From: a virus
Taxonomy: Duplodnaviria; Caudoviricetes
Direction: 5' to 3' (one strand)
Virus record (IMG/VR): IMGVR_UViG_3300033463_000088
Coordinates: 11,081 to 75,080 of that record
DNA length: 64,000 bases
The notes below the pieces were generated by a model. It ran no database searches, was not told where the DNA came from, and was given only the letters and a program-made list of their open reading frames with translations. The stretch's first letter is position 1, and each line of letters begins with the position of its first letter. The position numbers and the translations under genes were made by a program. This document shows positions 374 to 18,227 of this stretch, one piece after another.

Positions 374-383
374 ATCTTTCTCC

Positions 384-3300: not shown

Positions 3301-3386
3301 ACTGATTCAACTTTCTTTACTAACTTTTTAACTGCTGACTTAGCGGTTAAATCGATATTAAATTCTTCTCCAAAAAGTCCTTCCAT
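384..3386 (-). CDS. polA: Family A DNA polymerase with 3'-5' exonuclease domain (1000 aa)
   Basis: Exo motifs DIDTET and HNGKFD; polymerase motifs DYSAQEPR, RASAKTMLLAATYG and VHDE. It carries two insertions. All 12 Trp codons are TGG. Confidence 0.97.
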   Translation of the reverse strand: MEGLFGEEFNIDLTAKSAVKKLVKKVESVKTAEVNTEKLLASKELSIKERLAIITEKVLKILGRQKENTVVIKTKEDFSAYIDKAIKAGRIDIDTETNNSTDPATCKIVGLCLYVPGEKQAYIPVNHVDVDTGIRLPWQMTEEDCKEQLQRILDSDIFIIMHNGKFDFEVLLETCGIAIPPDWDTIIGARLIDENKYSEKSTSLKWIYTTEIDPTQAKYDIESLFENIPYIYVDPEIFALYAATDSMMTDKVYLWELPYFQQAGNEKVLKLFQNIENPIVEVTAKMELRGVAVDLEFGERLKEKYNKQLQELDEKINQELDTLKDRIEAWRLTPEANEKTRMYCPKKSKMSLEKQEDTYNLVDEEGRRYKETKPKTAQLPDVINMASPTQLAILFYDVLKCPVVNKAKPRATGEDELVALAEQTDYSICKLIVQRRGIVKLISTYIDVIPELAKHWPDHRIRFKLNSMGTDTGRYSSGGKWKFLDGDKPVEISGINIQNIPSHNKEIRMLFRAKEDKGVVNFLEGVGETVKEIVELETPNGYVFVKELTETDKLFSTSGEIINISHISYNQADKSAVIYTDADCEVNSRTRYKLVGSDYSAQEPRLTAFISQDQKMIQAYEQGQDLYAVIAQSMYHNEYWENLEFYPEGTEIELDGKKIVCGKKTHLHKAGKERRASAKTMLLAATYGMSGKTAGIRLGYNGDDARKQGQQLLDNFFGKFTRVKEEIEASKAQLKKVGYVEDWAGRRRHLPEINLPSYTVKLKDDNIEANFNPFLNCVNKESNDDPRIKKWEERIKREIRASQEKQRSRAAEDGRVWEENDEVSNVQYEKLAKEALADGILLIANTGKRAQAERQCFNARIQGGAASLTKLAMINIDRDPLLNELDAHLVITVHDEVLVECPALYADIVEKRLPQVMIDTAKPYINVPMKCDPYNVSHWYEDEAAVAIREEFKKLEKGNPEKGIHPVDRETALGIIYDNHPEHDKTVLYNVITQEADLTF

Positions 3387-3417
3387 TGACGTCTCCTTTA
3401 CTTTATATATTGATTAA

Positions 3418-4353
3418 TTAAAATGAAAATCCGGCAAAGTTTCTAGCTGGTTTTTCTTCAGCTGGTTTTTCTTCAGTGGTTGTAGCAGTTGCTTTAGCAG
3501 GTTCTGCAGTACCAATAGCTGTATGAGCTTCGACATTGTTTGTACCAATAGCTGTATGACCAACTGCTGGAGCTGGTTTTGGATCTAATGCAGCGTCCAT
3601 CTCTGCTTCTTCTTTAGCGCTAGCAAAGACTGGATCACCACCAACTTTGATACCATTATCTAATGTTCTCATACCATCATCAGCTTTTTCAGCTTGAGGG
3701 AAGGAACCGTTAGCTAAGTAGTATTCTAAATCTTCTGCTGGTTTTTCCCAGTAGGAATGTTTATTGATATTGAAATTATCAAAAGCGCTGAAATCTGTAG
3801 AAACTAATTCTGGCTTATCATAAAGTGGAATGAAGTCTAAGGAATACTTAGTATCTTTACCAGAACCTTGACGTGTAACTTTGAAAACATGTTCTTTTAA
3901 GCTACCATAATCTTTTAACTTTGTTGCTAATTCTCTTGAGAAACCAGCAGGACGTTCCCAAACGACTGGTTGAGCAACACTCCAACTACCTGTTGCAGCG
4001 TCTTTATAAGCAACTAACATTTCAACATAAACTGTTTTAGCAGCTTTACCGACGACATCATGACCTTCAGCTGCAGCGCGGCAGAATGGGCAAGTATCGG
4101 AATAGGAACCAACTTCATTTAAGCAGCTAACTGGTGTAAAGCCTGTTCCGAGGCCTTCAAACTTTTTACCAAAAGCTGGTTTATGAACTGTTGCGAATTT
4201 TAAATCTTCAATTGTAGCAGCATTAATTCTGACGAGCGCTTCATCACCATTGCCTTTTAACTTGAAGAAACCGACTTTAACGGCGTTTGTAGATGGACCA
4301 CTTTGGGCTTTTTCTACGACTTTTTGATAATCATTGTAATTAAATTGACTCAC
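3418..4353 (-). CDS. T4 gp32-like single-stranded DNA-binding protein
   Basis: Zn-site-like H...SC...CPFC, FKVTRQGSGKDTKY motif, acidic low-complexity C-tail, position within the replisome cluster. Confidence 0.78.
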   Translation of the reverse strand: MSQFNYNDYQKVVEKAQSGPSTNAVKVGFFKLKGNGDEALVRINAATIEDLKFATVHKPAFGKKFEGLGTGFTPVSCLNEVGSYSDTCPFCRAAAEGHDVVGKAAKTVYVEMLVAYKDAATGSWSVAQPVVWERPAGFSRELATKLKDYGSLKEHVFKVTRQGSGKDTKYSLDFIPLYDKPELVSTDFSAFDNFNINKHSYWEKPAEDLEYYLANGSFPQAEKADDGMRTLDNGIKVGGDPVFASAKEEAEMDAALDPKPAPAVGHTAIGTNNVEAHTAIGTAEPAKATATTTEEKPAEEKPARNFAGFSF

Positions 4354-4416
4354 TGTAATCTTTCTCCTTTATCATTTAATCGAGTATCTTTATAATATAT
4401 TATACGACCTACGCGG

Positions 4417-5358
4417 CTATGAATTTCTAGCCTCTTGAATAATTTTATCAAATTCTGGCTTTGTCAAGTCGTTAATATCCTTTTTTCCGTCTGGAAACTT
4501 AGTTTCAACAATAATAATTCGCTTTGTAAGCTTTCTTTTTAATGTTTCTGTGAAACGTCTTCCAGCCTCGTCATTATCAAACATAGCGTATAAAACCCTA
4601 ATACAAGATTTATTTAGCTGTTCTATTTGATAATCAGAGATTTTACCGAATGTTGCTACTGTTGGATAACCATATTCCCAGCCAGTTAAGCAATCAAATG
4701 GTCCTTCTGTAATAACTGCTGTCTTAAAATTGTTTTTCATAACATAATCTAAGCAGTATACAGGCTTTTCGACATCTTTATCGAGATAAAATGTCTTAGT
4801 ATCTATTGATCGTTTGGTCATCATCACTAGTCTACCATTAATATCATAGGCTGGGAAGATGATTTGACGATATTTTGGGTCATATTTTACCTTAAAAAGC
4901 TCGCAAATCTCTCTTGAAAGCTTCCTTTTTGCTAAATATGGACACCAAGATTGGTAGTTTTCGAGGATTTTTGGGTCCAAAAATTGCTTCTTTTGGGTCC
5001 TTTTTCCTATTTGTATTGGCTCATCCATTGCTACTGCGCTTGATACAATCTCGCCTCCAAAGGTCTTTAATAGCCAATCTTTAGCGTATTCTAAAGAGGA
5101 ATCAAAGCATCCAGCAACAAACTTTAAGAATGAGCCTTTCATATCGCAGCCGAAGCAATGAAACACGCCATCTTTCTTTCTAATAAAGCAAGAGCCATGT
5201 TCTTCTTGACCACCGCTATGAAATGGGCAGCTTACGACGATATCGGTTGACTTATCTTGAATATCTTTTAACTTACCATTAGTTAAAACAATACGAAGTC
5301 TATCTAAGACTGTACTGATATCCGCATTAAGTATGAAATCGTTTGTAATTTTAACCAT
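4417..5358 (-). CDS. dnaG: DNA primase (CHC2 Zn finger plus TOPRIM)
   Basis: CPFH...FHCFGC zinc finger; EGPFD and MFDNDEAG TOPRIM motifs. Confidence 0.92.
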   Translation of the reverse strand: MVKITNDFILNADISTVLDRLRIVLTNGKLKDIQDKSTDIVVSCPFHSGGQEEHGSCFIRKKDGVFHCFGCDMKGSFLKFVAGCFDSSLEYAKDWLLKTFGGEIVSSAVAMDEPIQIGKRTQKKQFLDPKILENYQSWCPYLAKRKLSREICELFKVKYDPKYRQIIFPAYDINGRLVMMTKRSIDTKTFYLDKDVEKPVYCLDYVMKNNFKTAVITEGPFDCLTGWEYGYPTVATFGKISDYQIEQLNKSCIRVLYAMFDNDEAGRRFTETLKRKLTKRIIIVETKFPDGKKDINDLTKPEFDKIIQEARNS

Positions 5359-6698
5359 TATAATCCTGAATCGTCGTCGTCCTTAAATCCATCATTATCA
5401 CAAACTTCTTCTGAATAATAGTTAGGATCGATTTTTTCATCTGGATTAAGAGGAATAAATCTACCTTCGTCGAAGTTTGCTTTATAAATAATCTTACCAC
5501 TGCCGCCGTCTCTTGACTTGACAACATTTAAGATTAATTTATCATCTTTAACTTTTGTTTTGGCTTCATCTTCATAAGTTAAGTTTCTACTTAACATGAT
5601 AATGCTTGTCGCATCTTGGCCAATTCTATCTGATAAACCAATTTGAGTGGTATCTTGTTCACCATTATCTGTCTTATCTCTGTTTAATTGAGAAACAGAA
5701 ACAATTGGAATACCTTTCATAACTTGAAGATTTTTAATATCTTTTGAAATATTTGCAACCTTTTCTGGAACCGTCTTGCCGCCGCGTTCATCTTCCAATA
5801 AAGAATATTGGTCGATAAGCAACATATCAAGATGATATTTCTCAATAAAGGTTCTTAGAGCTGAAACAGTCGCTGGACCATTAATATCTTTTGGTGTTAA
5901 GATTTTAATATCGCCTGGGACGTAAGAATTAATATTATCTAAGTAATTCTTATAAGGAATTTGCATTGATGTATCAGTTCCTCTTGTAATAACTCTATTA
6001 CTGATGTGTCCGATTAAGCTATCTAAACGATACGCAACCTTATCAAAGATCATTTCACCTGAATAAAGACCAACATTATAACCTAATTGAGCGCCACTTG
6101 CTGCAACTTTCAATAAGGTCCAAGATTTACCTATACCTGTTCTAGCAGCAATAACCATATTTTCATTTTCGGTATCAATGCCGCCAATTAATGCATCAAG
6201 TTCTGGAAAACCTGTTGGAATATAATATTTGTTGTGATTAACAACTCTGTCTAAATACTTATCATAACGGCTTGTATCTTCTTTAATACTTACACATGTC
6301 ATAGCAGTATTAGGACGAGTAGTTGATACTCTTTCTTCGAGCATCTTGAATGCTTCTTTAGACTTACCACTTTCAACAAGCTTTTTAACTTCATTGAAGG
6401 TTGTTGCTAAGAAACTTTCTTCATAATCATTGAATAATTGTTCTAAGAGATATGAGTCTGGCTCATTAATGTCCATGATGTCAAAATCTGGGAAGACGTC
6501 AGCAAAAGTTAATCTATCTGGGACAGTTCCATATTTCTTATAGTGATTAACTATATAATTAAATTCATTTGGATATGTGAAGAAGAATTTATCTGACAAG
6601 TTATTAAGCTCGACGATTGAGAAATCCTTCGTTTGTAATAATTTATTAATTAGTTGAAATTGTGCTGTCATATTAGTCTCTTCCCTCACTGGTTGCAA
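5358..6698 (-). CDS. dnaB: Replicative DnaB-like helicase
   Basis: Walker A AARTGIGKS, LLIDQY, SQLNR, IGQDA and KSRDG motifs. Confidence 0.93.
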   Translation of the reverse strand: MQPVREETNMTAQFQLINKLLQTKDFSIVELNNLSDKFFFTYPNEFNYIVNHYKKYGTVPDRLTFADVFPDFDIMDINEPDSYLLEQLFNDYEESFLATTFNEVKKLVESGKSKEAFKMLEERVSTTRPNTAMTCVSIKEDTSRYDKYLDRVVNHNKYYIPTGFPELDALIGGIDTENENMVIAARTGIGKSWTLLKVAASGAQLGYNVGLYSGEMIFDKVAYRLDSLIGHISNRVITRGTDTSMQIPYKNYLDNINSYVPGDIKILTPKDINGPATVSALRTFIEKYHLDMLLIDQYSLLEDERGGKTVPEKVANISKDIKNLQVMKGIPIVSVSQLNRDKTDNGEQDTTQIGLSDRIGQDATSIIMLSRNLTYEDEAKTKVKDDKLILNVVKSRDGGSGKIIYKANFDEGRFIPLNPDEKIDPNYYSEEVCDNDGFKDDDDSGL

Positions 6699-7371
6699 TT
6701 AAATTTAAGTGTCTCTTATCGATACCATGTAATTCGATATCGACTGAACGGTTAACAATTCTACTTGCTAGTCGTTCACCCATTGTTTTTTCTAAATCTC
6801 TTGCTCCGAGATTTGATGTAAAGACATTGGTTTTACCTTTTTCTATTCTCATGTTGATTAAGTTTAATAACTGATTAAGTTCAAACTCTGTACCAACTTT
6901 TGTAGCAATGTCATCCCAAACAACAATATCTGCTGTTAAGACACGAGCTTTGATAAACTCGACGTATTCACTTCTACCTGAGATACTATTTTTTAATTCA
7001 ATTAAGAACCTTGGAACGCTGATAAATAAACCTTGACAACCAAAGTTTGACTCATACCAAATAGCATTAAAATAAGCTTGAATCATTCTGATCGCCCAGG
7101 AAGTTTTACCATTGCCGCAAGTATATGAGTGAATATATAAGTTTTGTCCTGTTTGAACAAAGTTCTTAATGTTCTTCTCAATATTTGCTAGCTGTAAAAA
7201 CTCATTGTAGTCAGTTCCGTCTGCATCAGTATTTAATGTTCGTCTGACACGTTGGAGTTCTTCCAAGTTTGAGTTATCATAGAGACAGTCTAATCTGTAT
7301 CTTCTCATACAGAAATCTTTATCACAGTCTCTACCATTACATTTATGTTTATATGGACAATTCTCGACCAT
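6673..7371 (-). CDS. DnaC/IstB-like AAA+ helicase loader with N-terminal Cys cluster
   Basis: CGNGKTSW Walker A, VVWDD Walker B, TNVFTSN and RLASRI motifs. Confidence 0.85.
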   Translation of the reverse strand: MVENCPYKHKCNGRDCDKDFCMRRYRLDCLYDNSNLEELQRVRRTLNTDADGTDYNEFLQLANIEKNIKNFVQTGQNLYIHSYTCGNGKTSWAIRMIQAYFNAIWYESNFGCQGLFISVPRFLIELKNSISGRSEYVEFIKARVLTADIVVWDDIATKVGTEFELNQLLNLINMRIEKGKTNVFTSNLGARDLEKTMGERLASRIVNRSVDIELHGIDKRHLNLIATSEGRD

Positions 7372-7390
7372 TAACTGCCTCCTTCTTTAA

Positions 7391-7942
7391 TTATTTGGTT
7401 CCTGTAGAACCTGCCCAACCTTCTCCTCTGGTTGTTTTTTCTTTATAAAATTCTAATGGTGTTTTATCTACAATTTCAAGTGGCTCTGTTGAGATTAAAT
7501 GAGGAATAAATTGAATAACTTTTTGTCCGCATTCTATCTCTTGCCAGTCATCAGAAGTATTAATTAAATGGAAATGCCATTCACCTTGATAGGAGCAATC
7601 AATAACTGATGCGCCGAAAATTAATTTCTTCTTTGTAGCAATACCAGATTTATTATTTGCAATCAAAGCTAACTCAGGACCAAACTTACTTCTAATACCA
7701 CTTGGGATAATAACATCTCTGTGAGGTCTAATGTGAATTTTTCCTGTATCAACTTCATAAACAACTGGGTTTGCGCAACCTTTGATTACTGCATCAGAAG
7801 TTGTAAACCAAGTAGCTGGGTTTTTATCTTTCATGTCTCTTTGAAATTCTTCAGTATTTTCTGGAATAAATAAATCAATTCCAGCATTTTCTTCGACAAC
7901 CCTTATAGGGTCTTTAACATTTCTTGTTTTAATAAATTGCAT
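7391..7942 (-). CDS. dut: Trimeric dUTPase
   Basis: AGIDL, NKSG, VIDCSYQGE and RGEGWAGSTG motifs. Confidence 0.92.
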   Translation of the reverse strand: MQFIKTRNVKDPIRVVEENAGIDLFIPENTEEFQRDMKDKNPATWFTTSDAVIKGCANPVVYEVDTGKIHIRPHRDVIIPSGIRSKFGPELALIANNKSGIATKKKLIFGASVIDCSYQGEWHFHLINTSDDWQEIECGQKVIQFIPHLISTEPLEIVDKTPLEFYKEKTTRGEGWAGSTGTK

Positions 7943-7959
7943 TATCTACACCTCATAAT

Positions 7960-7968
7960 ATTATACAA
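7960..7968 (-). promoter_or_regulatory. Sigma-A-type -10 element TTGTATAAT upstream of dut and the replisome
   Basis: Exact TTGTATAAT followed by GAGG SD. The same 9-mer recurs at 18152, 26486, 62417 and 62887. Confidence 0.6.
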
Positions 7969-8000
7969 TAGCGATGCGCGTAAAATGAGTATAAAAATAA

Positions 8001-8029
8001 AATATCGTCCAATTTTTTCGGACGATATT
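8001..8029 (-). terminator. Intrinsic terminator
   Basis: AATATCGTCC/GGACGATATT 10-bp stem followed by a T-rich tract on the minus strand, at the end of the folD operon. Confidence 0.7.
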
Positions 8030-8149
8030 CAACTTAAATATAGAAAATGTAAGGGTATTTTTTAGGTATCATTTACAGTATCTTTTAAGTTAAATATCGT
8101 TGATATTTTATCTTATAGAACGCTCAACGCGCTCACTTAATTTAGCCAA

Positions 8150-8509
8150 TTATTCTTGCGGTAAATTAGCAAAATCTTGACATAATTGTTGATATTTTGG
8201 GCTTGCCCTTGTCTCATCAATTTTGTCTTTATAAACAGTAGGCATGTTTAGAACCCAGTCTTTACAATCTGCTAAGGAGGCAAATCTTAAGAGAGCTCCT
8301 TTGATAGGACAAGCAATCATTGGAATTGCTGTACCAGATTTGATATCAACAATTTTCCAACGAAGTTCTGGATATAAAGCTCTACCTTGCTCTTTATAAG
8401 CAAAGAGTTCATAACCAATTGCTGTTCCTGAAACTTTGACTGCTGCGTAGTGATGATCTTTTGCTTCTTCATCTCAAACACGAGTATAAATTCTAAATTC
8501 TTTTGCCAT
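8150..8509 (-). CDS. Hypothetical protein (119 aa) with in-frame TGA(Trp) at codon 12
   Basis: ATG lies 2 nt after the folD stop. MAKEFRIYTRV[TGA]DEEAKDHHY...DFANLPQE-TAA stays open for more than 100 codons past the TGA at 8474-8476. Missing from the track. Confidence 0.75.
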
Positions 8510-8511
8510 AC

Positions 8512-9297
8512 TTAATTTAGCTTTCCTAATTCAATTAAATTATCTAAAACAGCAATTCGGGTCATAAGACCGACACCGCCAGGGACTGGACTTTGGAACT
8601 TAACATGTAAGTCTTTATCACAGTCTCCAGTAAGCTTTCCATCTTCACCAACATTGATGCCGACATCAAACACTATTGCGCGAGCTTTTAGTTTATATTT
8701 AGAAGTTAATGTATGTTGATGACCAGTAGCAACAACTATCAAGTCAGCGTGTTTCAAATAAAATGCTTTATCTGATTCACTTGTCTTTGAATGCAACACT
8801 GTGACATTCATACTTTCTTTGAGTAATAGTTGAGCCATTGGTTTACCAACAATATTTGAACGTCCAATAACTACAGCATTTTTTCCTTGGAAGTCATATT
8901 TCATATCTTTTAGATAATTGTAAATGCCAAGAGGAGTTGCTGGAACAGTTTTTGATAAAGGATGGAATCCATCAATATCTTTTTCAGGAGCAATAGCAAG
9001 TTTAACTTTTTCTTCAGAGATATGTTTTGGAAGAGGTAGCTGAACTAAATAACCTGTCAAATCTGGGTCAGCATTTAAGCCTTCCATTAAGTTTAATAAT
9101 TCAACTTCAGTAGTTTCTTCCGGGAGATTAATAATTTCGCAATCAATGTTCACCTCAGCAGCATCCTTAGCTTTATTTCGAACATATCTGTCTGAGGCAG
9201 GAACATGTCCAATTTGAACAATAACCATCTTCAAATCAGGATGTGAATTTTTTAATTTTTCTTTCTTTTCTGCTACATATTCTTTAATTATTTGCAT
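8512..9297 (-). CDS. folD: Bifunctional methylene-THF dehydrogenase/cyclohydrolase
   Basis: YVRNK, LVQLPLP, KDIDGFHP, VIGRSNIVGKP, DVGIN and PVPGGVG motifs. Confidence 0.97.
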   Translation of the reverse strand: MQIIKEYVAEKKEKLKNSHPDLKMVIVQIGHVPASDRYVRNKAKDAAEVNIDCEIINLPEETTEVELLNLMEGLNADPDLTGYLVQLPLPKHISEEKVKLAIAPEKDIDGFHPLSKTVPATPLGIYNYLKDMKYDFQGKNAVVIGRSNIVGKPMAQLLLKESMNVTVLHSKTSESDKAFYLKHADLIVVATGHQHTLTSKYKLKARAIVFDVGINVGEDGKLTGDCDKDLHVKFQSPVPGGVGLMTRIAVLDNLIELGKLN

Positions 9298-9307
9298 ACT
9301 AATCTCC

Positions 9308-9556
9308 TTACCAACTAACTATAAAATTTGGATAATCTGGCCAGGCAACATTAACATTAAAGCCTTCAGAACTAATATAATCGCTAACGTCCCAAATAAG
9401 ATATCTATTTCCATATTTATCTGGGATTCTAAAAATCATTTCTCTATTTCCGCGCTCCGCTTCCATTTTTATATAATGATGGAGCTCATCAATAAATTGT
9501 TCTCTTGTAGTTCTTGGGTCAACCCCAGCTAGTTGTCTTGCTTCTTTTGCTGTCAT
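9308..9556 (-). CDS. Hypothetical protein
   Basis: 82-aa ORF with SD, in operon. Confidence 0.7.
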   Translation of the reverse strand: MTAKEARQLAGVDPRTTREQFIDELHHYIKMEAERGNREMIFRIPDKYGNRYLIWDVSDYISSEGFNVNVAWPDYPNFIVSW

Positions 9557-9557
9557 A

Positions 9558-9701
9558 TTATTTCCTCTTTTTTTGATTATTTAGCCATTGATAAAACTCA
9601 TTTGTTGCATCTCTGCAATAAAATGAGTCTGGCTTTGCAGTACAACCACTTGCGGTTTTATATCTGCAAAAATCACATTTAGTATATCTTTTACTAACCA
9701 T
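9558..9701 (-). CDS. Small Cys-rich hypothetical protein (47 aa)
   Basis: MVSKRYTKCDFCRYKTASGCTAKPDSFYCRDATNEFYQWLNNQKKRK fills the gap between fhs and the next gene with 1-nt spacing on each side. Confidence 0.6.
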   Translation of the reverse strand: MVSKRYTKCDFCRYKTASGCTAKPDSFYCRDATNEFYQWLNNQKKRK

Positions 9702-9702
9702 A

Positions 9703-11454
9703 CTAATTAAATTTATCTAAGCAGCGAGGTTCTTTTGGTAAACCTGGCATTAATAATAATTTGCCAGATAATGGAACAATTAAACCTGCGCCACTATATA
9801 ATCGGATTTCTCTAATATGAATTGTAAATCCAGTTGGAGCTCCAAGAACTTTTGGATCATCTGTTAATGAGTTTGGAGTCTTACTGATACAAACAGGAAG
9901 ATGACTATAACCCATATCAGTATATTTTCTCATTTGTTCTCTAGCTAAATCGGAATATTCAATTCGATCAGCACCATAAATATTATGACAGATAGTTCCA
10001 ATCTTATCATCAATAGAGTAATTTCTGTAATCACCTTGAGGATAAAGTGGATATAATGGTTCAAAGTGGTCAGCTAATTCTGGGAAGACACTAACTGCTT
10101 CGCTATCTTGAACATTTAAGATGCCTTGGACAGTTCTTGCTAAACTGACAGCGCCATCGCCACCATCAAGAGCAGCAGTATTAATTGCCCAATTAATTTT
10201 ATTTTCTTTACACCAAGCTCCAATAGCTTCTAATTCAGCATCAGTATCACTTGGGAAACGGTTAATAGCAACAACAACTGGGACACCATATCTTGTCATA
10301 TTTTCATAATGCTTTTGTAAATTACAAATACCAGCTTTAACTGCTTCAACATTTTCTTTTTCTAAATCTTCAAATGCAACACCACCATGAAGCTTTAATG
10401 CTCTAGCAGTGGCAACTAAGACAATAACATTTGGATGAATTCCTGCTAATTGACATTTAATATCTAAGAACTTTTCAGCTCCGAGGTCTCCACCGAATCC
10501 GGCTTCTGTGACAACAACGTCAGATAATTTAAGCGCTAACTTTGTTGCATTGATAGAATTAACACCGATAGAGATATTAGCGAATGGTCCGCAATGCACT
10601 AAAACTGGATTTTCTTCAAGTGTTTGAACAACATTTGGATTCATTGCATTTCTCATCATTTTAAGAATTGCTTTACTACAATTGAATTGTCCAAAGTAAA
10701 CTGGATTTCCATCATAGTCATAAGCAGCAATAATCTTATTAACTCTATCAATAAACTCTTCTTCGCTTTGAGAAATTGTTAAAATTGTCATAAGTTCAGA
10801 AGCAACTGTAATAACAAATTCTGAGTTATGATTTGATTTCTTGTCTCTTAATTTTTTAAGGTCTTCTTTAGTGCCGCCATTAAGAGATAATTTATCTAAT
10901 TCAATATCTAAATTTCTGCCATCTAAATCAAAACCAGCGGTGCCATCAGCATTGACGCCGACACTTCTCAATGAACGGTCATTAACGTCAAGCGCACGTT
11001 TCCATTCAATTCTTCTTGGATCAATTCTTAATTCATTGCCTTGCCAAATATGGTTTTCGATAATGGCAGACATTAAATTAATAGTAGAAGTTAACGCATG
11101 AAAATCGCCTGTGAAATGTAAATTAATATCATCACTTGGAACAATAGTTGATTTTAAGGCACCAACTGCTCCACCCTTAATGCCCCAAACAGGGCCTAAA
11201 GATGGTTCTCTTAAACAAGCAAGAGAATTAACACCAATTCTACGTAAGCCATCGTGTAGGCCAATTGTAGTTGTAGTTTTGCCTTCACCGGCTTTTGTTG
11301 GAGTAATAGCTGTTACTAATACTAATTTACCGTCAGGTCTGTCTTTCAAAACCTCACGGTATTTATAGTCAATCTTAGCTTTATCCCAACCATAAGGTTG
11401 GACATATTCATTAGGTATACCTAATTCTTTAGTTAAATCTAAAATATTTTTCAT
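9703..11454 (-). CDS. fhs: Formate--tetrahydrofolate ligase
   Basis: TAITPTKAGEGKTTTTIGL, REPSLGP, GIKGGA, INLHFTGDFHA, HCGPFANI, VTEAGFG, EKFLDIKC and MPGLPK motifs. Confidence 0.97.
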   Translation of the reverse strand: MKNILDLTKELGIPNEYVQPYGWDKAKIDYKYREVLKDRPDGKLVLVTAITPTKAGEGKTTTTIGLHDGLRRIGVNSLACLREPSLGPVWGIKGGAVGALKSTIVPSDDINLHFTGDFHALTSTINLMSAIIENHIWQGNELRIDPRRIEWKRALDVNDRSLRSVGVNADGTAGFDLDGRNLDIELDKLSLNGGTKEDLKKLRDKKSNHNSEFVITVASELMTILTISQSEEEFIDRVNKIIAAYDYDGNPVYFGQFNCSKAILKMMRNAMNPNVVQTLEENPVLVHCGPFANISIGVNSINATKLALKLSDVVVTEAGFGGDLGAEKFLDIKCQLAGIHPNVIVLVATARALKLHGGVAFEDLEKENVEAVKAGICNLQKHYENMTRYGVPVVVAINRFPSDTDAELEAIGAWCKENKINWAINTAALDGGDGAVSLARTVQGILNVQDSEAVSVFPELADHFEPLYPLYPQGDYRNYSIDDKIGTICHNIYGADRIEYSDLAREQMRKYTDMGYSHLPVCISKTPNSLTDDPKVLGAPTGFTIHIREIRLYSGAGLIVPLSGKLLLMPGLPKEPRCLDKFN

Positions 11455-12032
11455 TAATAATTTTTCTCCAGTTTATCTTTATTAACATTATACCAAGAAA
11501 CAAAATCATCGAGAGAGTCAGAGCCATCTAATTGAGTTAATAATTTAACTAATAACTTTTCTGAGTCAACATGCATTGCTCTTTGACCTTCACACTTAGC
11601 TTTCCAATAATCTAATGGTGTATGAACTGTCCAAGCTTCTTTTGAATAAGCTTTACCAGCACCAACAAAGTCACAGAACATTTCAATAACTCTTTCATAA
11701 GGCATTTTAACGCACTTACAAATAATTGTAAAAGTTCCGTCGCCATTTGGCTTGGCTTCGTTGAAATCAGTCCAATATTCCCAGTGATGTAAATTACGTG
11801 CTTTGTGGTGAATCCAGCTTGGGCTATAGCCTAACTTAGCTCTTGCAATATCATGCGGGCTTTTTGTGCCATCAGCGTATTTATAAATTTCAAACTCATC
11901 TGGACTAAACTTACTTAAATCATGTTGCTCACCAAGTTCTGGAATTCCCATTTGATAACATAAATCTCTAACAACTTTAATATGATTATTTATAGTTTGA
12001 GTATGTAAGTCTCTTTTTTCTTTATCTGTCAT
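11454..12032 (-). CDS. HD-like metal-dependent phosphohydrolase (DUF5662-like), copy 1
   Basis: H...HDLSK...WIHHKARNLHHWEYW...MP..RVIEMFCD pattern. Confidence 0.7.
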   Translation of the reverse strand: MTDKEKRDLHTQTINNHIKVVRDLCYQMGIPELGEQHDLSKFSPDEFEIYKYADGTKSPHDIARAKLGYSPSWIHHKARNLHHWEYWTDFNEAKPNGDGTFTIICKCVKMPYERVIEMFCDFVGAGKAYSKEAWTVHTPLDYWKAKCEGQRAMHVDSEKLLVKLLTQLDGSDSLDDFVSWYNVNKDKLEKNY

Positions 12033-12295
12033 TATTTAGTCTCCTGTTTAACTGTAGTAGCTGTCACCATATTTTTACCTTCTTGGGTAGGCGCGATAAT
12101 AATATCATTTAAACCCTGCTCATAACAAATTTCTTTAAGTCTTTTGCACAAATTATAAACATCTTCTTTTGGCATTTTACCAACTTCAACATTTAAAATT
12201 ACTACTTCACCAGGAGTATAAGTTTTAACTACTTTTTGAATAGTCATCTTTTGAACTTCTTCTTTAATAAATTCTTTAATTTGTTTATCTGTCAT
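12032..12295 (-). CDS. Hypothetical protein
   Basis: 87-aa ORF, translationally coupled to its neighbours. Confidence 0.65.
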   Translation of the reverse strand: MTDKQIKEFIKEEVQKMTIQKVVKTYTPGEVVILNVEVGKMPKEDVYNLCKRLKEICYEQGLNDIIIAPTQEGKNMVTATTVKQETK

Positions 12296-12791
12296 TATTA
12301 AGCTCCTTTACAACAGCATTAATTTCTTCTCTTAAATCTGTATACCAAGATTTTTTAAGTCTTTGTAATCTTAATTTAATATACTCAGTTTTTTCTGCCC
12401 AATCAGGCATTCCAACAATAATTCTATTAATTCTGTCTGGCCATAAATAAGAACCAAGCTCTATATTAGTAGTAAAAGCTGGATTATCTTTATCTCTTGG
12501 AATCCAGAATACTATTCTATCTGCTACATACATAGCATTGAGCTCCCAGTCAGTTTGGTGTTTTAACTCATCTTTAGCTTCTCTATCAAAGAGTGCATTT
12601 GTTGGGCTAAATACAATACCAATATAACCGGCTTCTTCTAAATACTTAAAAGCTTCATTTCGCCAGTCATTTTCATAATTTTTTCTTGGACATGGGCCTG
12701 CTAAAAAAATTGTAGGCAGCTCAGCAAAATTATAAGCTTCTTTTAATGGGTCAGTAAAACCGTTTTTATCTTTTGGAAAAATTTTAATCAT
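12285..12791 (-). CDS. Nucleoside 2-deoxyribosyltransferase-like protein / NMP N-glycosidase
   Basis: IFLAGP...WR...VFSP...WE..AM..AD.IVFW...TTNIELG pattern. Start moved to ATG 12791, which overlaps the upstream stop. Confidence 0.75.
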   Translation of the reverse strand: MIKIFPKDKNGFTDPLKEAYNFAELPTIFLAGPCPRKNYENDWRNEAFKYLEEAGYIGIVFSPTNALFDREAKDELKHQTDWELNAMYVADRIVFWIPRDKDNPAFTTNIELGSYLWPDRINRIIVGMPDWAEKTEYIKLRLQRLKKSWYTDLREEINAVVKELNNDR

Positions 12792-12936
12792 TTGGGCTTT
12801 CAACTCTATCACCAAGTTCAAGCTCTTCCATTAAACGTTTTTCTTCAGCTTTTTCAACTGGATCGAGCTCTCTTGTTTCAGAAATACAAGCTAATTCCAT
12901 TAAACGTCTGTGAACGTATTGTTTTCTGTTTGACAT
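12784..12936 (-). CDS. Small hypothetical protein (50 aa)
   Basis: MSNRKQYVHRRLMELACISETRELDPVEKAEEKRLMEELELGDRVESPND, coupled to both neighbours. Confidence 0.6.
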   Translation of the reverse strand: MSNRKQYVHRRLMELACISETRELDPVEKAEEKRLMEELELGDRVESPND

Positions 12937-12937
12937 A

Positions 12938-13111
12938 TTAGACCCTCGCAATAACATCTTGTAAAGCTTTAATTAAATTTGTTGAATCAACATCGAGACC
13001 ATCAACTTCACTATCGGCAATAGCTTTTGCTAATGCGCCTAAAATTTGGCCTGCTTTTGTTAAAGCTTCCACTTCTTCCTTTGAAAATTCTGCAATTTTT
13101 TTGACTTCCAT
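12938..13111 (-). CDS. Small hypothetical protein (57 aa)
   Basis: MEVKKIAEFSKEEVEALTKAGQILGALAKAIADSEVDGLDVDSTNLIKALQDVIARV, with upstream AGGA SD. Confidence 0.62.
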   Translation of the reverse strand: MEVKKIAEFSKEEVEALTKAGQILGALAKAIADSEVDGLDVDSTNLIKALQDVIARV

Positions 13112-13126
13112 TTTATTTTATCCTTT

Positions 13127-13387
13127 CTATATAAATTGTAATAATACACCAATTAAAGCTGCTGCTATACAAAACATACAGGTAGTAGCAGCATTGCTTC
13201 TCATTTTAAGAGCAAGATTCAGCAATGTATCTTCGTCTTGTTCTAGTCCTTTTTCAACACAAGCATCATAAAATTCTTTAAAAGCTTTAGTAGATTTAGT
13301 AATGCTATAAGCGGAAAACCAAAAATACCCACTAACAAAGAATAAAATTACGCTTATAACAATAAGGATTACACCAATTAAATGCAT
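13127..13387 (-). CDS. Two-TM membrane protein, hypothetical
   Basis: Hydrophobic N- and C-terminal segments. Confidence 0.6.
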   Translation of the reverse strand: MHLIGVILIVISVILFFVSGYFWFSAYSITKSTKAFKEFYDACVEKGLEQDEDTLLNLALKMRSNAATTCMFCIAAALIGVLLQFI

Positions 13388-13884
13388 TCTGCGTCCTCTC
13401 TAGTCCACTCTTGTAATATTATACCATTTTTTCTGAATAATTCTATTAAAGGTCCTCGTTCAGAACATGGATTATCGGGTTTTTCATGAACCAATAGGAC
13501 TATTTTTGGTTCACCCTTATAGTGAGTTATCTTCCTAACATCTTCAGCAATGCGTTCAAACTCAGGAATTAGATAACCATTGAAGTCTATTTTATCTAAA
13601 TGTCGCCTATATGCACTTAAAAATGCACACGCAGGCCATTTATTTTGGTACTCACAAGGCCTTCCAGAACACATTTCTTCTGGAGTTTCTTCCTCTGAGA
13701 GTAAAAAACTCTCTTCTTTTATACCAATAAGTAGGTTATTTTCATTAATATACTGACGCTTTCCATTGGCTGTATTAAGCCATTTTGGAGACCAAAATGA
13801 GGTATCTATCAAAATTAAGCTGTCATCAGTCATGAAACGGATATTTTGAAAGTAGGTTATATAATATTTATTTATCATTTCCAA
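13378..13884 (-). CDS. DUF488-like protein
   Basis: N-terminal Y.TYF...P.W and C-terminal VLLVHEKPDNPCSER pattern. Confidence 0.5.
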   Translation of the reverse strand: MEMINKYYITYFQNIRFMTDDSLILIDTSFWSPKWLNTANGKRQYINENNLLIGIKEESFLLSEEETPEEMCSGRPCEYQNKWPACAFLSAYRRHLDKIDFNGYLIPEFERIAEDVRKITHYKGEPKIVLLVHEKPDNPCSERGPLIELFRKNGIILQEWTREDAECI

Positions 13885-14767
13885 ATAAACTAAAAGTCAC
13901 TTCGTCTGTTTCTAAATTTATAGAGTCAATATGAAGAAATACTCTGCCTGCTTCACGCAATCTTCGACTAAATACCTCTAATAATTCATTAAATTTATCG
14001 TTATTAATAAGATCTGCTACTTGTTCATTAACTATAAAGCTACCTGTTTTACCAGAATGCCAGTCAGAACCAATAAGTAAACTAGCATCATGAGCTTTTT
14101 GATTTTTTAACTCTTCTAAATCTTTAACTAGCTTTACATCTATACGAATAGTTTTACCATTAATGATAATATCATAGTCTGCTAATTTACCCGGGTCTCC
14201 ATTATAACAATAGGCATCAAATGGGTCGAGACCAATACAAGAAATTCCTAACTCATTACAACTATCTTCAAAGATTGTTTGTTGAATATGACTATTAAGC
14301 TTTTTTTGTAATTTACTTTCATAAGACCCTTCCCAAATAGGTGATCCCATTGTCTGTAATAATTTTCCATGACCAACAGGAAGCTTACTATATTCTTCAA
14401 TAGAGCTAATTATATTATCACAAAGAGGGCTTCTTTCATCAATCTGCCTAACACAAGTAATTTCGCCACCTATCTTTTCTGGAAGATATATGTCGAATTT
14501 AAATACAGTACCTCTAGCCTTAAAAATAATCCAAACCAAAAAAGTTTTTTGGCCATTTTCATTATAAAAAGTTCCAGCTATTATTGCTTTTTGTGATACA
14601 GCAGCATTGCCACTCATAAAAATATCTTTAGCTGCTTGCCAACCTTCTTCAGATAGTTCTTTTCTAGTATCTAATTTAGGGCATTTTGCCTTAGCTATAT
14701 GATTTTGTAGCTTCTCTATTGGCCAATTAATTTGAGCCCACTGGGGTCGTAATGTTTCTATATTCAT
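13868..14767 (-). CDS. Hypothetical protein, possible C-terminal PD-(D/E)xK nuclease
   Basis: ADYDIIINGKTIRIDVK resembles the D...(D/E)xK catalytic pattern. Confidence 0.45.
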   Translation of the reverse strand: MNIETLRPQWAQINWPIEKLQNHIAKAKCPKLDTRKELSEEGWQAAKDIFMSGNAAVSQKAIIAGTFYNENGQKTFLVWIIFKARGTVFKFDIYLPEKIGGEITCVRQIDERSPLCDNIISSIEEYSKLPVGHGKLLQTMGSPIWEGSYESKLQKKLNSHIQQTIFEDSCNELGISCIGLDPFDAYCYNGDPGKLADYDIIINGKTIRIDVKLVKDLEELKNQKAHDASLLIGSDWHSGKTGSFIVNEQVADLINNDKFNELLEVFSRRLREAGRVFLHIDSINLETDEVTFSLFGNDK

Positions 14768-14778
14768 ATTATATTATA

Positions 14779-15309
14779 CTATTTTCTATTCCAAATTTGC
14801 TGGCTAATTGAATAACCATTTGTATACGCCATTCGGCAATCTAAGCCGTCATTCTTAAAATAAGGACTTGCGGCCATACATTGCCATTCTGGCATCTCAC
14901 TGATATTAGGGAAGAAGGCAGTAGCTTCTGGGTCAATAGCGTCAACAAATGTAATATCTATTACTTGTGTGTAAGGGAGCATGCTAGCGTATAAACTCGC
15001 ACCTCCGCAAATATATACATCTTCACTAGTAGCTAGCTTTTGAATAAAATCAAGCATTTGATCAAACTTACTAAAGGTAATTGCGCCTTCTAAACAATCA
15101 ATTGAAGGAGCATCTGCCCATAAAACAACATTAACTCTATCTTTTAATGGTCTGTGTTTAAGCGACAAATATGTATTGTAACCAAATACACAGACTTTTC
15201 CAATAGTTTCACTTTTAAAATGTGCCATATCGGCGGGAATATTAAATAAAAGACCATTGGCTTTTCCAATACCAAAGTCTTTTGCACAACAAACAATAGC
15301 TTTAATCAT
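14779..15309 (-). CDS. folA: Dihydrofolate reductase
   Basis: IGKANGLLFNIPADMAHFKSET, RPLKDRVNVV, ICGGASLY and AFFP motifs. Likely start is ATG 15309 (MIKAIVC). Confidence 0.92.
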   Translation of the reverse strand: MIKAIVCCAKDFGIGKANGLLFNIPADMAHFKSETIGKVCVFGYNTYLSLKHRPLKDRVNVVLWADAPSIDCLEGAITFSKFDQMLDFIQKLATSEDVYICGGASLYASMLPYTQVIDITFVDAIDPEATAFFPNISEMPEWQCMAASPYFKNDGLDCRMAYTNGYSISQQIWNRK

Positions 15310-15688
15310 CTTTTGGGTCCTCAAAACTTAAACTTTGACTGCAAATTTTTGACCAGGGAGTTTGTCTTTTTTCAGCTGCTTCAAAAGCTTTTTGTTCAGC
15401 TTCCATCTCAATTTTCATTTGTTCATCATCTAACTCAGCTTTCGACTTATCACCCGAGCTATAACCACCTGCAAAACCACAATGCGGGCATTTCCTACCA
15501 AGTCTAATATACTTTAAAGTAGAAGTATCAGCTGGGTTTGCTTGACTATAAGCAGCTTCACTTTCTAAAGCATAAAAAGTCTTACTGCAGCAAGGACATT
15601 GAATAGTAACAATTTTTTCACCTGTTTCTATTGCTAAGTTAGTAACTTCATCTAAGTTTCTTTCTAATTCTGTCATATTATTTTCCAA
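15302..15688 (-). CDS. Zn-ribbon hypothetical protein
   Basis: CPCC and CPHC pairs. Confidence 0.65.
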   Translation of the reverse strand: MENNMTELERNLDEVTNLAIETGEKIVTIQCPCCSKTFYALESEAAYSQANPADTSTLKYIRLGRKCPHCGFAGGYSSGDKSKAELDDEQMKIEMEAEQKAFEAAEKRQTPWSKICSQSLSFEDPKDD

Positions 15689-16277
15689 TTAATTTTCTTA
15701 ATTTTTCAGCACAGTCTTCACAAATGTGTCTTGGACTTTCATGTAAACCATTATGAATACTTGTATAAATAAGCGGAATCTCAAAAATTTCTCCGCAAAT
15801 TTCACATTTAGAATAAGCTTTTACTTCTGGGTCTGCAATTTTAAGTGGTTCAGCTAAGGCGCCTTCTATTGAAATATGACCATTGTTATCCATAGTATAA
15901 GTAGCAGCACCTTCTTCAGTAATGCCTTCTTCATTAATAGAAATTGTTTCTTGTGTCCATTTAATTGGTGGTTCATATAAATCTTTATCTTCCTGACTTG
16001 GTGTTACCTGTTCATATGTGCCATCATACAGCTCATAAGTGAACATAGAGCTGCCAGTATTACAATATTTACAGTGCCAGCCATATTGTGGCGGGTAAGA
16101 AGTTAAAATTACTCCTGTATCAACAAGAGCCACTTTACCGCATTTTGGGCACTTAATATAAACTTTATTATTCACCCAAACATAATTATTAAAAGTATGA
16201 TTTTTAATATCAACTGGTTTTACTTTTAATGTAGTTTTACCATCACCGGCATCAAATATATATTCTTTATCTGTCAT
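15678..16277 (-). CDS. Multi Zn-ribbon hypothetical protein
   Basis: Four CxxC pairs (CPKC, CKYC, CEIC, CEDC). Confidence 0.65.
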   Translation of the reverse strand: MTDKEYIFDAGDGKTTLKVKPVDIKNHTFNNYVWVNNKVYIKCPKCGKVALVDTGVILTSYPPQYGWHCKYCNTGSSMFTYELYDGTYEQVTPSQEDKDLYEPPIKWTQETISINEEGITEEGAATYTMDNNGHISIEGALAEPLKIADPEVKAYSKCEICGEIFEIPLIYTSIHNGLHESPRHICEDCAEKLRKLIGK

Positions 16278-17122
16278 TATTCAGCTACCTCAAACTTTTC
16301 TTCAAGCTTAGTTGCTTGATAATTTTCTAATTCAAAGTCTTCTTCTTTGAAATCATAGAAGTCTTTGACATTTGGATTTAATTTTAATGTTGGAGCATCA
16401 TACTCTGGGTTTTCTAAGAGCTTTCTAACTACTTCAACATGTCTATCATAAATGTGTAAATTATGTACGATATGAACTAATGTTCCAACTTGATAACCAC
16501 AAACTTGGGCTAACATATGCGTTAAAATTGCATATTCCATAGTATCCCAACCGCCTGAACTTGCAGCAGCAAGTAAGTCGCCAGAACGTTGAATAAGGGT
16601 GCAGTTTAATTTACCGTCAGTTACATCCCAAAGACTTTCATAAACACATGGAGGTAAAGCCATATCATGTAAATCTTCTGGGCACCACATGGTGACGATC
16701 ATACGTCTATCCATAGGCTTATTCTTTAATAAATAAATTAAGTTATCAACTTGATCAAAATCGCCGTAAGAATAATGAGAAACCTTACCTAATTGATAAC
16801 CATAGGTCTTACCAATAGTTCCATCAGGTCTTTCCCAAGCTCTCCAAATCGCGGCGCTAGGGCCTAATTCATTAACAACGTTGGATTTCTTCTGCCACAT
16901 CCATAAAAGCTCTCTTACGACGCCTTTAAATGCTTGTTTTCTAAGTGTTAAAGCTGGAAACTCTTTTGATAAATCATATCTACGAACAACACAATGTGTT
17001 TTAATAGTATGAGCTGGTGTACCATCTTCCCAATGTGGTCTGACTTCATAGTCCTTATCATTAAAACCATTTGTTAATAATTCAATTGCTTCTGAAATAA
17101 AATATTTATCTGCTTGACTCAT
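16277..17122 (-). CDS. thyA: Thymidylate synthase-family methyltransferase (Asp at the Asn177-equivalent position)
   Basis: ELLW, RRMIV, LPPC (catalytic Cys), QRSGD and HIYDRH motifs. It has WDTMEY where ThyA normally has (F/W)N..(S/Q)Y. The family is certain; the substrate is not. Confidence 0.9.
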   Translation of the reverse strand: MSQADKYFISEAIELLTNGFNDKDYEVRPHWEDGTPAHTIKTHCVVRRYDLSKEFPALTLRKQAFKGVVRELLWMWQKKSNVVNELGPSAAIWRAWERPDGTIGKTYGYQLGKVSHYSYGDFDQVDNLIYLLKNKPMDRRMIVTMWCPEDLHDMALPPCVYESLWDVTDGKLNCTLIQRSGDLLAAASSGGWDTMEYAILTHMLAQVCGYQVGTLVHIVHNLHIYDRHVEVVRKLLENPEYDAPTLKLNPNVKDFYDFKEEDFELENYQATKLEEKFEVAE

Positions 17123-17339
17123 CAGTCTCTTCCTCCTGTATATAACGTCCTGACCATTTCCTTATCATTTCACAAAGAGTCTTAAGCTCTCCCTGTCTTT
17201 CTTTTGGCCAATCATATTTAGTAATCTTAGTAATAAGTCTATCTGCTGTGATAGATGCATAAGTATTAATATAAATTGGAAAGGGCAATTCAAACTCTTT
17301 TTGTTCAGACTCGAAAACAATTCTACTTATTTTCATCAT
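17106..17339 (-). CDS. Hypothetical protein
   Basis: 77-aa ORF overlapping both neighbours. Confidence 0.55.
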   Translation of the reverse strand: MMKISRIVFESEQKEFELPFPIYINTYASITADRLITKITKYDWPKERQGELKTLCEMIRKWSGRYIQEEETDESSR

Positions 17340-17805
17340 CTAAAGCTTTCTTCATCTTATCTAAGATGCCTTCAACTAATTTTCTTGTGTTTTCATGAAG
17401 AACCATATCTTTATGCTTTGCATACCAGTCAAAGATTTCTCTTAAATTGCCTGTCTTATGAGAAAAACTCCACCAGTCAGCAATCATTTCATAGACATAT
17501 TGTTCTGGCATTTCAAGAGCTTCTTCTGGTTCATCATCGTGTTTTAATACCCAGTATTGCCAATGATGAGGATTTGCATGAATATGATGAAGCCAAGCAT
17601 AATTAAAGGCTTTTTCTACTTCTTTTGTTCTTTTACCATAGAAATAATCATCATAAGCTTTGTATTCCTCAGCTGTATATTTAGAAACATCGTGTAAACC
17701 AAATGAAATCTTTTCTGGAATAATTTGATGTTCATATAACCAGTCTGCTGCTTTTTGAACATTAGCAACATGAGTTGTAATATAACTTGTGTATTCTTGA
17801 CTCAT
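17323..17805 (-). CDS. HD-like metal-dependent phosphohydrolase (DUF5662-like), copy 2
   Basis: H...HDVSK...AWLHHIHANPHHWQYW...MPEQYVYEMIADW; paralogous to 11454-12032. Confidence 0.72.
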   Translation of the reverse strand: MSQEYTSYITTHVANVQKAADWLYEHQIIPEKISFGLHDVSKYTAEEYKAYDDYFYGKRTKEVEKAFNYAWLHHIHANPHHWQYWVLKHDDEPEEALEMPEQYVYEMIADWWSFSHKTGNLREIFDWYAKHKDMVLHENTRKLVEGILDKMKKALDDENK

Positions 17806-17810
17806 TATTT

Positions 17811-18134
17811 TTAACCTCTCTTATCAAACATATCATCATCTTCTAATAATGCTCTAAGTAACAAAAGATAATTAATATTATCTTGGATCTTTTCTTCCCA
17901 AAGTTCTTTAGAATATTTATGCTCACTTGCCACCATATCAGCTAAACTTTTAATATGCTTATACATAAACATATATAAAGTTCTTTCTGGAGATAGTTGA
18001 GTTAAATCATTACCTTGCTTAAAGAAAGATAATCTATCTTTATCTAAATTATACTCAGTTTGTTTAACACCTAAAGTGGCTTTACACTTTTCGAGCATTT
18101 CTTCAACAATTTTATTAAATTTTTCATGTGTCAT
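17811..18134 (-). CDS. MazG-like all-alpha nucleotide pyrophosphohydrolase / nucleotide-modification-associated protein
   Basis: K..EY...D.L..F...KH..SL.D...EEKI.D.INYLLLL pattern; first gene of the nucleotide operon. Confidence 0.5.
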   Translation of the reverse strand: MTHEKFNKIVEEMLEKCKATLGVKQTEYNLDKDRLSFFKQGNDLTQLSPERTLYMFMYKHIKSLADMVASEHKYSKELWEEKIQDNINYLLLLRALLEDDDMFDKRG

Positions 18135-18151
18135 AAAATATACCTCAATAT

Positions 18152-18160
18152 ATTATACAA
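18152..18160 (-). promoter_or_regulatory. Sigma-A-type -10 element driving the nucleotide/folate operon
   Basis: TTGTATAAT followed by GAGG SD and the ATG at 18134. A second TATAAT lies at 18202-18207. Confidence 0.62.
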
Positions 18161-18227
18161 TATAAATTCTTGCCAGATTTTACTAATTTTCTTTCTAGAT
18201 TATTATACGGCGAAGGACATTACAATT

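Follow-up and report, generated by a model that had tools for sequence, protein, structure and literature searches.

We identified, in a phage of about 220 kb from gut/rumen-type metagenomes, a ThyA-family gene that carries aspartate at the position where thymidylate synthases (TSs) select their pyrimidine substrate, and on the combined evidence of residues, relatives and neighbouring genes its product is probably a deoxycytidine monophosphate (dCMP) 5-methyltransferase of the type known from phage Xp12. The gene lies on the minus strand of the window, a stretch of 64,000 nucleotides from IMG/VR record IMGVR_UViG_3300033463_000088 that spans bases 11081–75080 of a contig of 75,080 bp, which has no terminal repeats. 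An initial annotation of the window, made by eye, had placed an Asp at the position that distinguishes deoxyuridine monophosphate (dUMP) from dCMP, and alignments to solved structures and a multiple alignment now agree with this placement. The coordinates of the gene and of its neighbours are collected in Table 1.

The 281-amino-acid (aa) protein matches the Pfam family Thymidylat_synt (PF00303) with E = 3.3e-75 over profile positions 20–258 of 266, and its best solved relative in HMMER searches is Bacillus subtilis ThyA (1B02/1BKO, E about 1e-70). The open reading frame (ORF) ends with TAA, contains zero in-frame TGA and encodes all eight of its Trp residues by TGG. In a MAFFT alignment with Escherichia coli ThyA (L043), T4 gp42 (L044), the Xp12 TS (L045) and representative homologues, residues E58, W80, Y94, R126, R127, C146, R166, S167, D169, H207 and Y209 were invariant; the full-length profile match and the catalytic C146, R166, S167 and D169, together with E58, Y94, H207 and Y209, place the protein within the PF00303 superfamily. 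The loop that follows reads QRSGD-LLAAASSGGW-D-TMEY, in which the Asp is residue 193 and is encoded, as annotated, by the GAT after GGW. The HMMER alignments to 1B02, 1BKO and 6AUJ pair "ggW-D-tmeY" with "npF-N-vfqY" and "vpF-N-iasY", leaving a three-residue gap earlier in the loop, and in the MAFFT alignment Asp193 shares a column with E. coli N177. This Asn, which defines the canonical dUMP-specific TS (EC 2.1.1.45), hydrogen-bonds O4/N3 of dUMP; here Asp fills its column. The initial alignment had crossed a three-residue insertion, and it holds, as the same longer loop is found in Asn-type homologues (GGWN in P0184 and P0248, GGIN in P0127 and P0153, and GGYN in P0135) and the insert is therefore not an alignment artefact. 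The Asp at the N177 position is confirmed as real and nonrandom.

Both the identity of this residue and its conservation can be read directly from the sequences. Among the 120 closest database homologues, with identities of 78% or more, 119 had Asp, the single Asn variant (P0032) being found on a 1.2-kb contig without context, and the 193 long-loop homologues collected comprised 180 with Asp and 13 with Asn. The nearest cellular ThyA proteins, which are of Bacillota type, had Asn in all 80 bacterial genome loci, mostly from Clostridia, Christensenellaceae, Oscillospiraceae, Lachnospiraceae and Bacilli of animal and human guts, and P0336 and P0317, Asn proteins with the long loop, are encoded in bacterial neighbourhoods of ThyA, dihydrofolate reductase (DHFR) and uracil phosphoribosyltransferase. 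Position 147 co-varied with position 177, being Val or Cys in the presence of Asp and Ala in the presence of Asn; in the MetaGPA study, the same two positions were those that distinguished the TS genes of contigs with modified cytosine from the TS genes of unmodified ones (PMC8670742). The ThyA proteins of B. subtilis, phage phi3T and gut Clostridia, the nearest sequences for which a solved structure or a cellular setting is available, resemble the phage enzyme in their 45–65% identity, in all catalytic and folate-contact residues, in the C-terminus and in the pairing of ThyA with DHFR, but they act on dUMP, and their residue 177 is Asn and their residue 147 mostly Ala, where the phage clade has Asp and Val/Cys.

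We placed these sequences on a maximum-likelihood tree of 86 sequences, computed with a quick method and with support from the SH-like approximate likelihood ratio test (SH-aLRT) only. The phage long-loop sequences formed one clade of 18 Asp members and 1 Asn member (SH-aLRT 99), nested among Asn-type lineages and far from the Xp12 TS, and the Asn/Asp state switched at least 7 to 10 times on the tree. Being nested in Asn-type lineages and apart from Xp12, the clade appears to have derived its Asp independently from a Bacillota-type ThyA; the Asn-to-Asp change, judged from the tree, thus arose independently of that in the Xp12 enzyme.

The sole Asn member of the clade (L026, IMGVR_UViG_3300001598_001490) serves as a natural control, albeit in one genome. 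It is sister to an Asp-type sequence (SH-aLRT 95), and the nearest database relatives of its ThyA (72–76% identity) all have Asp. Within positions 10001–14209 of this record, the Asn-type ThyA is followed by genes for a thymidylate-kinase-like P-loop protein, another member of the ThyA family and a DUF5662 protein. The second ThyA-family protein shares 37% identity with T4 gp42 (E = 3e-43), and its catalytic Cys and specificity Asp both line up in the alignment. In L026 this genomic slot is thus occupied by another cytosine-modification module: the resident ThyA has Asn where a separate dCMP hydroxymethylase is present and Asp where it is absent, the pattern expected if residue 177 sets the substrate in these phages. 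The natural return to Asn beside another cytosine-modifying module provides comparative support for a link between residue and function. The same interval of L026 also holds a DUF488-N3a protein, a DHFR and a small NPPY-motif protein, and no deaminase was found within the L026 ThyA locus.

These comparisons bear on whether the enzyme of the window phage could still work on dUMP, alone or alongside dCMP, with the Asp tolerated and the operon being an ordinary supply of dTMP for an AT-rich genome. The protein is otherwise a canonical TS with 45–50% identity to ThyA of the B. subtilis/phi3T type, it is the only TS-family gene of the genome, and a DHFR and a dUTPase-like gene, the latter dUMP-supplying, lie in the same block. 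We nevertheless consider continued use of dUMP quite unlikely, given the occurrence of Asp in 180 of the 193 phage homologues and of Asn in the cellular orthologues, the return of Asn in the one relative with a separate dCMP hydroxymethylase, the linkage of Asp-type genes to deaminases, and the behaviour of the mutants N177D of E. coli TS and N229D of Lactobacillus casei TS, in which the preference shifts to dCMP (Liu and Santi 1992; Hardy and Nalivaika 1992, both as cited in PMC8670742).

The expected product can be narrowed with published markers for the TS family, according to which Asn at position 177 selects dUMP and Asp selects dCMP, methyl products go with a bulky hydrophobic residue at position 143 and hydroxymethyl products with Asp or Glu there, and the substitution D169N is the mark of 5-hydroxy-dCMP synthases (PMC13326640, a 2026 paper on 5-hydroxycytosine phages). 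The window enzyme combines Leu143 (in MALPPC), Asp169 (in QRSGD) and Asp177. With Asn replaced by Asp at the pyrimidine-selecting position, its most likely ligand is therefore dCMP rather than dUMP. Its C-terminus, FEVAE, is that of the Asn-type relatives. In TSs the C-terminus shuts over the folate in hydride transfer, and dihydrofolate (DHF) arises from reductive methyl transfer only, not from hydroxymethylation. All the features of reductive methylation are present in this protein, and conversion of dCMP to 5-methyl-dCMP (5mdCMP) is predicted because residue 143 is nonacidic, Asp169 and the TS C-terminus are kept and a DHFR, which points to DHF and hence to reductive methylation, is encoded on the same strand. 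The initial annotation had left the product as either 5-methyl- or 5-hydroxymethyl-dCMP; the methyl alternative is strengthened by these features and the hydroxymethyl alternative disfavoured by the same ones.

Two other groups of phage enzymes share the Asp without sharing the rest of the signature. T4 gp42, a dCMP hydroxymethylase, has Asp at the specificity position and modifies cytosine before replication at the level of the mononucleotide, but it has Asp at 143, is without the TS C-terminal closure and makes no DHF; with its Leu at 143 and its 22% identity to gp42, the window enzyme does not fit the T4 type. The 5-hydroxy-dCMP synthases RB69 gp48 and DLP3 gp80 are likewise ThyA homologues with Asp177 that act on dCMP (PMC13326640), but their D169N and L143E substitutions are absent from the window enzyme, which keeps the Asp in QRSGD.

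The parallel with Xp12, whose DNA has 5-methylcytosine (5mC) in place of cytosine, is closer. The Xp12 enzyme (MT664984, 45326–46195) resembles that of the window in its ThyA fold, in having Asp at 177, in keeping Asp169, in the presence of DHFR in the operon and in the predicted 5mdCMP product, and its gene, a dCMP deaminase gene and the DHFR gene stand in a row, a layout that matches that of most relatives of the window phage. The two enzymes differ in that the window protein, aligned through E. coli ThyA, is 26% identical to that of Xp12, sits on another branch of the tree, has a loop three residues longer and carries Leu rather than Asn at 143; the sub-lineage of the window further adds Fhs and FolD and is without the deaminase, the deaminase of the relatives has only 22% identity to that of Xp12, and host range and phage type (~220 kb) differ as well. 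In a 2024 preprint, five of seven Asp177 TS homologues from metaviromes, together with the Xp12 enzyme, made 5mdC in vivo (10.1101/2024.12.05.627091). As the Asp177 signature is an accepted published predictor and several Asp177 phage enzymes have been assayed, the enzyme class itself is not new.

From these features we infer the substrate, what is made of it and what becomes of the product in DNA; the resulting pathway would run as follows. The enzyme would take 5,10-methylene-tetrahydrofolate (methylene-THF) as donor of both carbon and hydride and convert dCMP into 5mdCMP and DHF, the Xp12 reaction; the adjacent DHFR would restore THF, and Fhs and FolD would replenish methylene-THF from formate. 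The 5mdCMP would then be phosphorylated, presumably by a host kinase, and the 5-methyl-dCTP (5mdCTP) used by the family-A DNA polymerase of the phage, the outcome being 5mC instead of cytosine in the phage DNA. The HD-fold proteins of family DUF5662, a small four-helix protein and the dUTPase-like protein might serve to remove dCTP or to supply dCMP. In most relatives, the neighbouring dCMP-family deaminase may convert part of the 5-methyl-dC pool into thymidine nucleotides; the window sub-lineage is without that gene.

Gene content and synteny are matters of direct observation. The DHFR, Fhs and FolD genes named in the initial annotation are real and lie on the same strand. The DHFR is located 950 bp downstream of ThyA, and one is found within a few kilobases of ThyA in most related loci and also in the Xp12 operon. 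Fhs and FolD were absent within 10 kb of the ThyA of most Asp-type relatives, where a dCMP-family deaminase is found instead; the window sub-lineage has Fhs and FolD without a deaminase, and two loci (L025 and L028) have both. Since Fhs and FolD are missing near most Asp-type ThyA genes, the one-carbon (C1) supply is an add-on of some lineages and no general partner of the enzyme, and a 5mC pathway would be a plausible reason for the presence of a whole C1 cycle in the phage. We found no report in the literature of phage-encoded Fhs/FolD together with an Asp-type ThyA.

Relatives in IMG/VR reach 220–233 kb, and one of them (G001, 223,464 bp) has direct terminal repeats. Each of four near-complete relatives and one partial relative contained one ThyA-family gene (PF00303 search), and ThyX (PF02511) was not found in these five; the initial annotation had called for a check for a second thyA or thyX, and it turned up none. 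The extra hit in one relative (G004, IMGVR_UViG_3300031555_003626) comes from the repetition of this one gene at the two ends of the contig. Its ThyA–deaminase region is present at both ends, in 1–10752 and 204357–225199 of the 233-kb contig, which suggests that the assembly runs more than once round a genome of about 214 kb, circularly permuted or with terminal redundancy. A post-replicative route to 5mC was rejected, as no C5 DNA methyltransferase (PF00145) was found in the four near-complete relatives and the window contig.

Several observations weigh against an Xp12-type synthase whose product replaces cytosine. One concerns the predicted product: the Xp12 enzyme itself has Asn, not Leu, at position 143, so the marker at this position is not absolute. 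Such an imperfect predictor, and the occurrence of Asp177 also in T4 gp42 and MilA, would leave room for a dCMP hydroxymethylase making 5-hydroxymethyl-dCMP or for another C5-modifying variant. We regard this as very improbable for an enzyme that keeps Leu143, Asp169 and the TS C-terminus, is as distant from gp42 as noted above, and is so tightly linked to a DHFR that production of DHF is implied; moreover, a true gp42-like enzyme is encoded separately in L026, and neither a glycosyltransferase nor any other follow-up enzyme that needs the hydroxyl was seen in the vicinity.

A second group of observations concerns the deaminase. A deaminase motif was found 1–4 kb from ThyA, followed by DHFR, in 19 of the 31 related loci, and a PF00383 dCMP/cytidine deaminase was confirmed in L046 and in three of the five large records. 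L046 shows a typical gene order, in which ThyA is followed by DUF5662, a small ORF, the deaminase and DHFR, and these by dUTPase and replication genes. The sub-lineage of the window (the window, L002, L003, L004/G001 and L027) is without a neighbouring deaminase, and none was detected in the window by a six-frame motif scan or in the 75-kb contig by a PF00383 search; the gene is an accessory feature and not an essential one. In its absence, the thymidylate for a genome of 67% A+T would have to come from the host. Two further proteins are encoded in the same operon of relatives, one with an ART-PolyVal ADP-ribosyltransferase domain (L046, 13217–13867) and one, beside the deaminase, an N6/N4 DNA methyltransferase (L005, 12117–12842).

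The frequent presence of the deaminase raises the alternative that 5mdCMP is only an intermediate of a dUMP-independent route to thymidine, by phosphorylation and/or deamination to dTMP/dTTP, with little or no 5mC in virion DNA. Deaminases adjoining Asp177 TS genes, as in most of our relatives, convert 5mdCTP to dTTP (10.1101/2024.12.05.627091), the A+T-rich genome has no other thymidylate synthase, and neither a dCTPase nor a deoxynucleoside monophosphate (dNMP) kinase has been firmly identified. On the other hand, the window and the complete relative G001 have no such deaminase and would require one from the host, the HD-fold and MazG-like neighbours suit the exclusion of dCTP, and Xp12 and PaMx74, the phages known for this pathway, do replace cytosine with 5mC (10.1101/2024.12.05.627091). 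We consider a pure thymidine route unlikely.

The main gap in the pathway is the kinase step from 5mdCMP to the triphosphate. No dNMP or thymidylate kinase (Thymidylate_kin) was found in the contig or the four near-complete relatives, and the kinase of L026 has no homologue in the Asp-type genomes searched; in the published in vivo assays, the T4 gp1 dNMP kinase was co-expressed with each synthase (10.1101/2024.12.05.627091). The gene at 60438–61406, initially listed as a P-loop kinase, encodes a calcineurin-like metallophosphatase, with Metallophos as its only Pfam match, and the Walker-A protein adjoining ThyA in L025 is PhoH. The contig, furthermore, covers only about 33% of the genome as estimated by CheckV. 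Lastly, the sites GATC, GTAC and CATG are strongly under-represented, with observed/expected ratios (O/E) of 0.46–0.58; over the whole contig, GATC, GTAC, CATG and CTAG have O/E of 0.46–0.60 (z about −6.5 to −8.5), CpG has O/E 0.5 and CA/TG 1.16. The depletion of these sites suggests that the DNA still meets restriction at C-containing sites, a point that is not decisive, and 5mC does not block every restriction enzyme. The skew in composition could reflect host-like composition or restriction pressure, and we do not use it as support, as it does not discriminate modified from unmodified DNA.

Table 1. Features of the ThyA region in the window, listed from ThyA downstream and then upstream.
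Feature	Coordinates	Strand	Evidence
ThyA-family enzyme, predicted dCMP 5-methyltransferase (5mdCMP synthase)	16277..17122	-	Pfam PF00303 match
Asp193 codon GAT, equivalent to E. coli Asn177 / L. casei Asn229	16544..16546	-	
Zinc-ribbon protein between ThyA and DHFR, where most relatives have the deaminase	15678..16277	-	Zn_ribbon_8 match below Pfam cutoff
Dihydrofolate reductase	14779..15324	-	Pfam DHFR_1 E=7e-31
Conserved ORF, 299 aa	13868-14767	-	no Pfam/PHROG match; D...(D/E)xK-like motif near C-terminus (by eye)
Conserved ORF, 168 aa	13378-13884	-	no Pfam/PHROG match; Cys-containing end motif resembling DUF488 (by eye)
Nucleoside 2-deoxyribosyltransferase-like protein	12285..12821	-	Nuc_deoxyri_tr2 (PF15891) E=2.1e-12
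DUF5662 copy b (HD-fold), copy adjoining ThyA in most relatives	11454..12032	-	Pfam DUF5662 E=1.4e-27; synteny
Formate-tetrahydrofolate ligase Fhs	9703..11454	-	Pfam FTHFS E=2.9e-203
FolD, methylene-THF dehydrogenase/cyclohydrolase	8512..9297	-	THF_DHG_CYH E=4e-31, THF_DHG_CYH_C E=4e-41
dUTPase-like protein (trimeric dUTPase family)	7391..7942	-	Pfam dUTPase E=4.4e-7; phrog_135 E=1.8e-19
DUF5662 copy a, HD-fold metal-dependent phosphohydrolase	17323..17805	-	Pfam DUF5662 E=4.7e-33
107-aa four-helix protein, just upstream of ThyA	17811..18134	-	phrog_6802 E=1.5e-30

The initial annotation had named HD and MazG hydrolases, and the HD part is borne out by DUF5662. Its invariant columns are H12, H38-D39, H74, H80-H81 and D110. 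The AlphaFold2 (AF2) model of copy a has a predicted local distance difference test score (pLDDT) of 93, and its nine best VIA-align matches (Z 8.1 to 5.1) are HD-domain proteins without exception, among them phage S-2L DatZ, which removes dATP. Both the fold and the conserved His/Asp metal ligands are thus those of HD-domain phosphohydrolases, and by analogy DUF5662 is a candidate dCTP/dCDP hydrolase that would remove dCTP or supply dCMP; we found no mention of DUF5662 in the literature. The MazG part had concerned the 107-aa protein, for which the similarity is weak and of fold only. The protein is syntenic with ThyA in 14 loci, and its AF2 model (pLDDT 85) matches AF_0060 (Z 8.0), a MazG-related protein of Thermotoga maritima and the dCTPase DCTPP1/RS21-C6 (Z 6.1), scores in a range common for helical bundles. 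It has no Pfam match, and no Pfam MazG match was obtained in any record searched; going by the model, it is possibly an all-alpha MazG-like NTP pyrophosphatase. Searches of solved structures by sequence gave nothing significant for either DUF5662 or the 107-aa protein, and Foldseek against the PDB gave nothing below E = 0.001.

The translation of the dUTPase-like gene contains the motifs AGIDL, G.IDxxYxGE and RGxxGxGSTG. The nucleoside 2-deoxyribosyltransferase-like gene stands directly after ThyA in two related loci (L005 and L018). The superfamily of this protein includes dNMP and 5-hydroxymethyl-CMP N-glycosidases, for example MilB, the partner of the ThyA homologue MilA. The conserved ORFs of 299 and 168 aa, located between the DHFR and the deoxyribosyltransferase-like gene, recur in several relatives.

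Replacement of cytosine by 5mC guards phage DNA against many restriction enzymes and alters the reading of sequencing-based methylation surveys. What is new in the present case is the apparently independent Asn-to-Asp origin from a Bacillota-type ThyA with a longer specificity loop, its occurrence in a large and abundant clade of very large gut/rumen-type phages with hundreds of metagenome homologues, and the coupling of an Asp-type ThyA to a phage-encoded supply of methylene-THF from formate. Such phages could serve as sources of dCMP methylases and 5mC-selective deaminases. More speculatively, the family might toggle between two cytosine-replacement chemistries with ThyA following, Asp going with 5mC, usually beside a deaminase that would turn 5mC nucleotides into T nucleotides, and Asn with an acquired gp42-like enzyme and kinase, and the window lineage would then be fully 5mC, with formate-derived methyl groups and thymidylate from the host; we put this forward tentatively, as a scheme that may well prove wrong.

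The genome shows further features outside the ThyA region. When TGA was read through in 18200–60400 of the window, the number of ORFs of at least 200 aa fell from 21 to 14 while their summed length rose from 8,771 to 12,328 aa, the longest having 2,392 aa; the early region (1–18200) was almost unaffected, and TGA is apparently a sense codon in the late/structural genes. Upstream of the window, the replication block of the contig encodes a MetK-like protein of 270 aa (contig 9029–9841, minus strand), which matches the N-terminal domain PF00438 only (E = 4e-11) and is truncated or divergent, and, also among replication genes, a Pyr_redox_2 protein of 268 aa (contig 2042–2848, minus strand; E = 5e-16) that is possibly thioredoxin-reductase-like.

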